Shown here piece by piece: positions 49,455 to 49,964 of a stretch of 64,000 bases of DNA. The notes beneath the pieces were generated by a model. The model saw only the letters and a program-made list of their open reading frames with translations. It searched no databases and was not told the origin of the DNA. Position numbers and translations under genes: made by a program. This DNA is from a bacterium (lineage in GTDB: Bacteria; Sysuimicrobiota; Sysuimicrobiia; Sysuimicrobiales; Segetimicrobiaceae), in NCBI GenBank assembly GCA_035308905.1, contig DATGFS010000003.1, positions 418 through 64,417 on the forward strand, in the 5' to 3' direction. Position 1 is the first letter of the stretch, and each line of letters opens with the position of its first letter.

Positions 49455-49964
49455 TCAGTGGCCGGCAAGTTTGAGCCCGATTGCCAGGAAACCGGAAAGC
49501 ATCACGCCAAGGAGCCAGTAGAATTGCCTGCGCATATCGACTCTGACGCCCACGATCGCAGCTTCTAGCGCACCCCGGACACTTGTAATGTCAGAATGTG
49601 ATGTATCCCGGACACCACTAATCTCGGCGTGCAGCGTATCCCGGGCATCGCTGATCTCGGTGTGTAGTGCATCCCGGGCACCCTTAATCTCGGCGTGCAG
49701 CGTATCCCGGACATCGCTGATCTCGGTGTGTAGTGCATCCCGGGCACCCCTAATCTCCGCGTGTAATGCGCTCTGGGCACCGCCGATCTCGGCGTGCAAC
49801 GCGTCACGGAGACCGTTGATCTCCGCACGAACTTGTGCGAAGCCGGTGTCCATCTTTTGTTCCAGCGTGGCGAGCCGGCCTTCCACGGCACCGAGACGCC
49901 TGTCGACCTGTTCGTAGGCGCCCTCAAGGCGGGCGGTCCTGAGTTCCCAAGCGTCTGCGGCCAT
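49455..49964 (-). CDS. Tail-anchored coiled-coil protein with seven tandem 11-aa repeats (LHAEIxGARDA-type)
   Basis: MAADAWELRTARLEGAYEQVDRRLGAVEGRLATLEQ..., then (DALHAEIGGAQ/SALHAEIRGAR/DALHTEISDVR/DTLHAEIKGAR...)x7, and a C-terminal TM FYWLLGVMLSGFLAIGLKLAGH. It is encoded by 33-bp units in a 66-bp higher-order tandem array. Confidence 0.6.
   Translation of the reverse strand: MAADAWELRTARLEGAYEQVDRRLGAVEGRLATLEQKMDTGFAQVRAEINGLRDALHAEIGGAQSALHAEIRGARDALHTEISDVRDTLHAEIKGARDALHTEISDARDTLHAEISGVRDTSHSDITSVRGALEAAIVGVRVDMRRQFYWLLGVMLSGFLAIGLKLAGH
49596..49830. repeat. Coding tandem repeat array, about 7 x 33 bp (alternating A/B units forming 66-bp super-repeats)
   Basis: Read directly: ...atctcggcgtgcagcgtatcccgggcatcgctg / atctcggtgtgtagtgcatcccgggcacccttaa... 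repeated with few substitutions. In frame within the 49455-49964 CDS. Confidence 0.7.

Follow-up and report, generated by a model that had tools for sequence, protein, structure and literature searches.

The Bdr proteins of Borrelia are associated with the inner membrane, are of unknown function and are encoded on prophage-like plasmids, and orthologues that are 99.4% identical can differ in their repeats, approximately nine against six (PMC3303823, PMC10016077). DUF1640 proteins are membrane proteins with a C-terminal stalk, at the start of which lies a β-layer motif, [aliphatic]-A-T-K-[polar]-[DE] (PMC4786415). C-tail-anchored proteins are defined by a C-terminal transmembrane (TM) segment together with the lack of an N-terminal signal sequence; ElaB, one such protein, keeps membrane integrity under oxidative stress, and the N-terminal region of YqjD binds ribosomes (PMC6389858). 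Here we describe REP (tail-anchored repeat protein), which is encoded in a 64,000-nucleotide stretch of a Segetimicrobiaceae genome (phylum Sysuimicrobiota; GenBank assembly GCA_035308905.1, contig DATGFS010000003.1, positions 418 to 64,417), hereafter the window. REP is the terminal, accessory gene of a resident type IV secretion system (T4SS) island in one uncultured soil lineage, and close relatives differ in its repeat number by whole units. We consider it probable (roughly 0.6) that the protein is a cytoplasm-facing, length-tunable membrane tether, a coiled-coil stalk, anchored by its tail, in which a conserved head is joined to a rod that evolves by gain and loss of repeats.

Repeat array and architecture of REP

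Tandem Repeats Finder reported nested periods of 33, 66 and 99 nt in the REP gene between 49605 and 49823 (period 33, 6.6 copies, score 203; period 66, 2.4 copies with 93% matches, score 283), and a repeat search placed copies in the 33-nt register from 49554 to 49817. Identity of the array with itself at a lag of 33 nt was 0.655, against 0.284 ± 0.027 after codon shuffling (2000 shuffles), and no exact repeat exceeded 38 nt. In the unit identity matrix, units 3 and 5 are identical at 32 of 33 nt, as are units 4 and 6; the alternation of A- and B-type units arises from a recent 66-bp duplication, the two copies being units 3-4 and units 5-6.

At the protein level the array comprises nine hendecads (aa 48-146) with the consensus E-I-x-G-[VAL]-R-D-[AT]-L-H-A, in which the Ile is kept in all nine units, the Arg in eight, and the Leu and His in seven each. 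Only positions 2, 5 and 9 of each hendecad are hydrophobic (I2, V/A/L5, L9), forming a narrow stripe with an 11/3 period, and over aa 48-146 hydrophobicity has spectral peaks at 3.65 residues and at the other harmonics of 11. So narrow a stripe is what the core of an almost untwisted coiled coil would show, and not what a lipid-binding face would. Ahead of the rod, hydrophobic spacing in the head follows the 4-3-4-3 pattern of heptads from L13 to V45 and changes to the 3-4-4 pattern of hendecads from I49 onwards. The rod carries much charge and is strongly acidic (26 D+E and 19 K+R in 146 residues). With an alignment of 29 family sequences, AlphaFold2 predicted a single uninterrupted helix over residues 2-168 with a mean pLDDT of 93.7.

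The sole hydrophobic segment of the protein is the C-terminal TM helix (maximum mean Kyte-Doolittle value 1.72), which is preceded by RVDMRRQFYW and followed by only three residues. No signal peptide was found in REP, the N-terminus of which is polar (MAADAWELRTAR), and both features that define C-tail-anchored proteins are therefore present. Since a signal peptide is lacking, RVDMRRQFYW lies before the TM helix and the tail is so short, the soluble part is probably cytoplasmic; on these features the 147-residue rod most probably lies in the cytoplasm. A ladder of His residues was also observed, hendecad position 10 being His in seven of the nine units (protein positions 57, 68, 79, 90, 101, 112 and 123) so that these residues line up on one side of the helix; related alleles have His and Arg there in alternation, and a pH- or metal-dependent interaction through the ladder is conceivable.

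A word-indexed search returned 28 homologues of 93-151 aa, in which the first ~47 and last ~25 residues align well and the middle differs in length; alleles span 88-169 aa. The window allele has nine units (169 aa), and three relatives whose adjoining coupling-protein gene end shows 95-98% DNA identity carry ~7.4 units (L078, 151 aa), six units (L077, 135 aa) and five units (L076, 125 aa), with ~2.4 units (96 aa) at a more distant locus, L003. Two further contigs encode the identical 169-aa protein, one from JGI soil data and one of 83 kb from ENA that matches the window at 99.96% identity.

A first-pass annotation, made from the letters of the window alone, had described 33/66-bp tandem repeats with an A/B alternation and a hypervariable look, an N-terminal coiled coil and a single C-terminal TM anchor, and had proposed that copy number be compared with related genomes; the results above bear out this description. 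Its count of seven 11-residue units corresponds to the hendecads that follow its pattern (L-H-[AT]-E-I in six, S-H-S-D-I in one), two fewer than the protein register gives.

A spurious open reading frame (ORF) or non-coding repeat was considered and ruled out, in that the ends of the protein are conserved across phyla, all indels are in-frame, a Shine-Dalgarno-like motif precedes the start codon and the helix prediction is confident. An antisense ORF of 109 aa (49588-49917) is a mirror image of the REP repeats. Nothing convincing was found in the search for an intrinsic terminator or promoter around the gene on its own strand, and no second copy of the REP family was found within the window.

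Genomic setting and the wider family

On the strand of the gene, the island is ordered g442, TrbC/VirB2 pilin, a 106-aa gene, VirB4 (825 aa), g346, a VirB6-like protein (347 aa), g195, the coupling protein and REP (Table 1). The likeness of the 347-aa protein to VirB6 is weak; Pfam, NCBIfam and PHROGs gave no match for g442, g346, g195 or the 106-aa gene, and a relaxase or integrase could not be recognised anywhere in the island. GC content at third codon positions (GC3) is 0.94 in Lon, 0.75-0.82 in the eight T4SS genes, 0.66 in REP, 0.895 in the helicase and above 0.9 in everything beyond (0.89-0.95 across the flanks as a whole), REP being the last and most AT-rich gene of an island that is flanked by the host-like Lon and DEAH-box helicase genes. 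As its GC3 is low like that of the T4SS genes, REP belongs compositionally to the island and not to the helicase. The first-pass annotation had placed REP immediately downstream of the coupling-protein gene and in frame with it; the adjacency stands, REP beginning 38 nt 3' of the coupling-protein stop on the minus strand, whereas the two frames differ (52033 − 49964 = 2069, remainder 2).

Table 1. Coordinates of REP, its parts and its neighbours in the window.
Feature	Position	Strand	Basis
REP gene, complete ORF	49455..49964	minus	ORF list; ATG start, 169 codons; identical gene product on two further public contigs; ends conserved in 28 homologues
Shine-Dalgarno-like AAGGGAG	49974..49980	minus	9 nt 5' of the REP ATG, within the 38-nt gap after the coupling-protein stop
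N-terminal head, aa 1-47, heptad coiled coil with family motif	49824..49964	minus	Alignment columns (two alignments) and hydrophobic spacing
Rod, nine 11-residue units (aa 48-146), 33-bp tandem repeats	49527..49823	minus	Tandem Repeats Finder, unit table and identity matrix, hydrophobicity period, autocorrelation
66-bp duplication, units 3-4 against units 5-6	49626..49757	minus	2 nt differences in 66
C-terminal TM helix, aa 148-166 (FYWLLGVMLSGFLAIGLKL), then tail AGH and stop	49467..49523	minus	Kyte-Doolittle; kept in all family members
Low-GC3 T4SS island	49455..59121	minus	GC3, Pfam/NCBIfam, synteny
Type IV coupling protein (VirD4/TraG/TraD-like), 652 aa, upstream neighbour	50003..51961	minus	Pfam T4SS-DNA_transf, TrwB_AAD_bind, TraG-D_C; gene call on L001
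DEAH-box helicase with MrfA Zn-binding domain, downstream neighbour	47065..49371	minus	NCBIfam TIGR03817, 905 bits against a cut-off of 874

The order coupling protein-REP-helicase was found in 14 loci (L001-L003, L005, L020-L025, L053 and L076-L078). In these, identity stands at 85-98% in the REP head against 68-82% in the coupling protein; the head is more conserved than the coupling protein and is thus under constraint. In relatives whose coupling proteins are 49-78% identical, the island occupies one chromosomal site, bordered by Lon at one end and by the helicase and GH57/GlgC genes at the other, and the identities of coupling protein and helicase fall in step (78%/94%, 64%/87%, 53%/74% and 49%/71%). 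Because these two proteins diverge together, the island looks long resident at its site, and by this measure it resembles a chromosomal T4SS of long standing and not a recent conjugative element. Compact T4SS islands of this kind were seen in the window, L003, L005 and L079-L083. A tRNA-Glu (UUC) gene at 63003-63080 lies ~4 kb past the island, beyond the host-like Lon gene rather than at the island boundary. The title of the helicase model TIGR03817 reads 'helicase/secretion neighborhood putative DEAH-box helicase', and the helicase of the window adjoins a T4SS island. The nearest named homologues of this helicase are from Armatimonadota (62-63% identity); presumed Eremiobacterota relatives fall in the wider REP family, not in the lineage of the window.

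Distant coupling-protein homologues (49-64% identity) were traced to their own contigs to examine the position of REP. In L079/L080 the helicase is next in order after the coupling protein, with no REP between them; L081 also lacks REP; and L082/L083 retain only a headless remnant running from GFAQVRAEI through the TM segment (~11985-12215 in L082, ~10186-10377 in L083). REP is therefore not a core part of the T4SS. The linkage of helicase and island is kept where REP is absent (L079). In L025 (4001-4297) the REP allele is frameshifted.

The JGI soil contig (L002) is identical to the window through REP, with six mismatches in 1082 nt of the coupling-protein gene, and then shows 18 mismatches in its last 112 nt (positions 1723-1834), from ~50 nt into the helicase gene; the end of this contig is either a recombination breakpoint at the edge of the island or a chimeric contig end. 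Three independent contigs of metagenomic origin (L022, L024 and L077) stop 43-109 nt past the REP stop codon. The REP/helicase junction seems to be a point at which assemblies end, as would be predicted for the border between a variable island and a conserved gene. The REP locus is both a natural marker of strains, similar to a variable-number tandem repeat, and a site at which short-read assemblies are interrupted.

Pattern scans of genome and metagenome collections gave 68 loci, ~60 of which encode proteins of 65-193 aa that share the head motif ARLEGxYEQ[IV]DRRLG, a rod of 7- or 11-mers and a tail anchor. In REP the motif residues are A11 R12 L13 E14 G15, E18 Q19, D21 and R23 L24 G25; across the head columns G15, Q19 and L24 are invariant, and R9, A11, L13, E14, E18 and R23 nearly so. 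The rods consist of 7- or 11-residue repeats of unrelated sequence, such as DQRFERV (four copies), GRVDALA (three copies) and AKFDGVY (many copies). One Vulcanimicrobiaceae metagenome-assembled genome (MAG) encodes both a 193-aa member with many AKFDGVY/EFGxLRRD repeats (L007, 289-870) and a 105-aa paralogue (L008), a case of repeat arrays that expanded independently from units unrelated in sequence. No T4SS or helicase was found near the ~60 wider-family loci, which come from several phyla and have housekeeping neighbours (CoaE, PanC, PanB, SecA, Mrp/ApbC and an amidohydrolase). An exhaustive profile search gave 207 clusters (50% identity) at E < 1e-10 and 3845 at E < 0.001, the latter figure certainly taking in generic coiled coils. 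Ten members that were looked up were all unnamed or 'hypothetical protein', with Armatimonadota and Vulcanimicrobiaceae MAGs among the sources. REP belongs to an unannotated family of small membrane proteins comprising at least ~200 clusters at 50% identity, which no Pfam or NCBIfam model captures.

Possible roles of REP

A tether or spacer role is, we infer, the most economical reading of REP. The helices would form a parallel, nearly straight coiled-coil oligomer held in register by the TM segments, and the cytoplasmic rod would present the conserved head ~6-22 nm from the membrane, with unequal recombination or replication slippage between units setting the length of the rod. REP could thereby act as a length-tunable tether or spacer for a conserved cytoplasmic partner and, next to the coupling protein, might keep something in place or at a distance at the secretion apparatus. 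The design, in which a conserved head sits on a rod free to vary in length, is clear and testable. It has precedents in the C-tail-anchored ElaB, YqjD and YgaM, of which YqjD attaches to ribosomes by its N-terminal region, and in the Bdr proteins, which are associated with the inner membrane and differ in repeat number.

Several observations weigh against this tether. Its topology, oligomeric state and membrane insertion are deduced from sequence only; several family members, moreover, end in RR or KR after the TM segment, so that the positive-inside rule alone leaves their orientation unsettled. The occurrence of the same 169-aa allele in three samples indicates that the array is stable on short timescales, and length variation may reflect slow unequal recombination rather than adaptive tuning. 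The frameshifted allele of L025 and the headless remnants of L082/L083 suggest that REP may be dispensable or decaying in places. Finally, an all-against-all comparison of ORFs within 3 kb at 75 loci found no shared neighbour outside the T4SS clade, with the one exception of a heptad-repeat protein. This recurring neighbour, a 443-aa protein with a run of VAGLKQD heptads (L068, 1540-2871), lies within 3 kb in five loci (L068, L013, L047, L069 and L075).

The alternative that survives best, though we hold it only tentatively, is that REP is a divergent member of a DUF1640/CCDC90-like and Bdr superfamily, with rod and anchor kept by descent, the head replaced and any scaffold role of those proteins shared. 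Translated searches (tblastn) of annotated phage and plasmid records gave as the best match P47 of Hamiltonella phage APSE-1, annotated as DUF1640 (33% identity over aa 42-165, E 5e-10), with units closely resembling those of REP and a C-terminal TM segment; Borrelia Bdr proteins (25-27% identity, within the coiled coil only; E ~1e-4) and Thermus megaplasmid proteins with 11-residue units followed, all of the matches being tail-anchored hendecad-repeat proteins. The CCDC90-like/DUF1640 model (PF07798) also weakly matched the rod of REP (E 0.0056) and six of 56 family members (best E 1.6e-5). Against descent, the PF07798 score of REP is 17.0 bits, far under the cut-off of 33.5 bits, P47 itself scoring 34.8 bits; neither the part of the Pfam model that covers the head nor the N-terminal Bdr model is matched; and the REP family profile aligned with P47 at 67.6% probability over 17 columns only. 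As pairwise statistics are inflated by repetitive coiled coils, descent and convergence are equally likely.

It is less probable that REP is a dedicated T4SS component, such as a mating-pair stabiliser, an entry-exclusion determinant or a coupling-protein adaptor, in which the variable rod or sequence would give strain specificity. The gene directly follows that of the coupling protein (with its own Shine-Dalgarno-like motif and no terminator-like site found in the 38-nt gap on the strand of the gene), shares the low GC3 of the island and keeps its place after the coupling protein in 14 loci, and the divergence of L002 from just inside the helicase gene would fit REP travelling with the T4SS block. 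Co-occurrence with T4SS genes did not, however, hold across related systems: set against these 14 loci are the same-site islands in which REP is absent (L079/L080 and L081) or truncated (L082/L083), and the ~60 family members with no T4SS nearby. In Pfam and NCBIfam scans REP matched no described T4SS or exclusion family at E ≤ 0.1, models of TraS, TrbK and Eex included, and it is the head, not the variable rod, that is most conserved. A T4SS-specific adaptor or exclusion role is thus possible but weakened by the absence of REP from sister islands and by the housekeeping settings of most of its relatives. The suggestion in the first-pass annotation that REP is a component of the element accordingly holds for composition and synteny, whereas a core mating-pair or entry-exclusion role is unlikely. 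It had reasoned that an invariant repeat number, with homologues far from any mobile element, would speak against its interpretation: repeat number is not invariant, yet most family members do lie far from any T4SS.

Of comparably low probability is a bolder form of the tether, in which the family would constitute an undescribed, multi-phylum class of 'molecular rulers' (head motif, expandable 7-/11-mer rod and tail anchor) with functionally tuned length, one copy of which was captured by the resident T4SS island, where it determines what docks at the coupling protein or how far away this is held, candidates being the DNA-processing machinery and a partner for strain-specific recognition.

We think it improbable that the 11-mers form an amphipathic helix lying on membrane or lipid, as in apolipoproteins, LEA proteins and perilipins, with REP serving as a membrane-protective or stress protein. 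The top Pfam match of REP is Apolipoprotein A1/A4/E (PF01442; E 2.8e-8), which also matches 17 of 56 family members; among solved structures only generic coiled coils and apolipoproteins were matched (A-IV and A-I at the top, E ≥ 1e-4); and the role of C-tail-anchored ElaB in membrane integrity offers a precedent. The PF01442 score (34.1 bits) is nevertheless far below the cut-off of 90 bits, the three hydrophobic positions per 11 lie in a narrow arc that suits a coiled-coil core and not a broad lipid face, and the rod is strongly charged. Least probable is export of the rod as a periplasmic or surface spacer of variable length, which was also raised in the first-pass annotation (as a surface or septum spacer): repeats and length variation do resemble those of surface proteins, and some family members have basic residues after the TM segment, but REP has no signal peptide, carries RVDMRRQFYW before the TM helix and a tail of only three residues after it, and export would take a highly charged 147-residue N-terminal domain across the membrane.

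Comparison with described families

No Pfam or NCBIfam model reached its cut-off for REP. Half of the family members matched DUF7310, in the repeat region only and below the cut-off of 40 bits, and membership of that family was dropped on this account. XhlA (PF10779), a small prophage-lysis coiled coil with a C-terminal TM segment, has the same head-to-tail layout as the REP family and matched 10 of 56 members weakly (best E 4e-5, cut-off not reached); REP itself had no XhlA match at E ≤ 0.1 and has no holin or lysin neighbourhood.

Apolipoproteins A-I, A-IV and E and the LEA 11-mer proteins resemble REP in that a long helix repeats every 11 residues. They lack a TM anchor and are soluble or bound to lipid surfaces, whereas REP is anchored and its hydrophobic face is narrow.

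The proteins ElaB, YqjD and YgaM resemble REP in being small, in lacking a signal peptide and in having a helical N-terminal part (cytoplasmic in them and probably so in REP), one C-terminal TM segment and a very short tail. They show no sequence similarity to REP, however, which has no DUF883 match. These three proteins are not known to carry tandem repeats or to vary in length.

Closest in layout are the DUF1640 and Bdr proteins. As in DUF1640, a family whose eukaryotic CCDC90-like members are MCUR1 and CCDC90B, REP has a long coiled-coil stalk and a single C-terminal TM segment, and P47 of APSE-1 carries at least five units of the form EIADVRKDLSA (compare EISDVRDTLHA in REP), ends in a TM segment and, like REP, is encoded on a mobile element. 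The DUF1640 head is missing from REP, the match covering only profile positions 51-155 (the head occupying ~1-50), and the A-T-K-x-D β-layer motif at the start of the stalk is absent, with no ATK in the 169 aa of REP. A PHROGs family of no known function, phrog_9415, matched the REP repeats (aa 35-98, E 8.7e-13); it was dropped as a source of annotation, as it has none to build on, and the match indicates that phage proteins with similar hendecad repeats exist beyond P47.

With Bdr, REP shares central 11-residue repeats, a C-terminal hydrophobic anchor and a repeat number that differs among near-identical strains. The two differ in phylum and in genomic setting, and the N-terminal Bdr domain (NF040499), on which a true Bdr scores 91.5 bits, had no match in REP at E ≤ 0.1. 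REP and the DUF1640 and Bdr proteins thus appear, from their sequences, to share one design, common descent being unproven. REP provides an environmental, non-spirochaete parallel to the long-unexplained Bdr proteins of Borrelia and to the DUF1640 proteins of phages, which suggests that tail-anchored hendecad-repeat stalks are recurrent cargo of mobile or semi-mobile elements.

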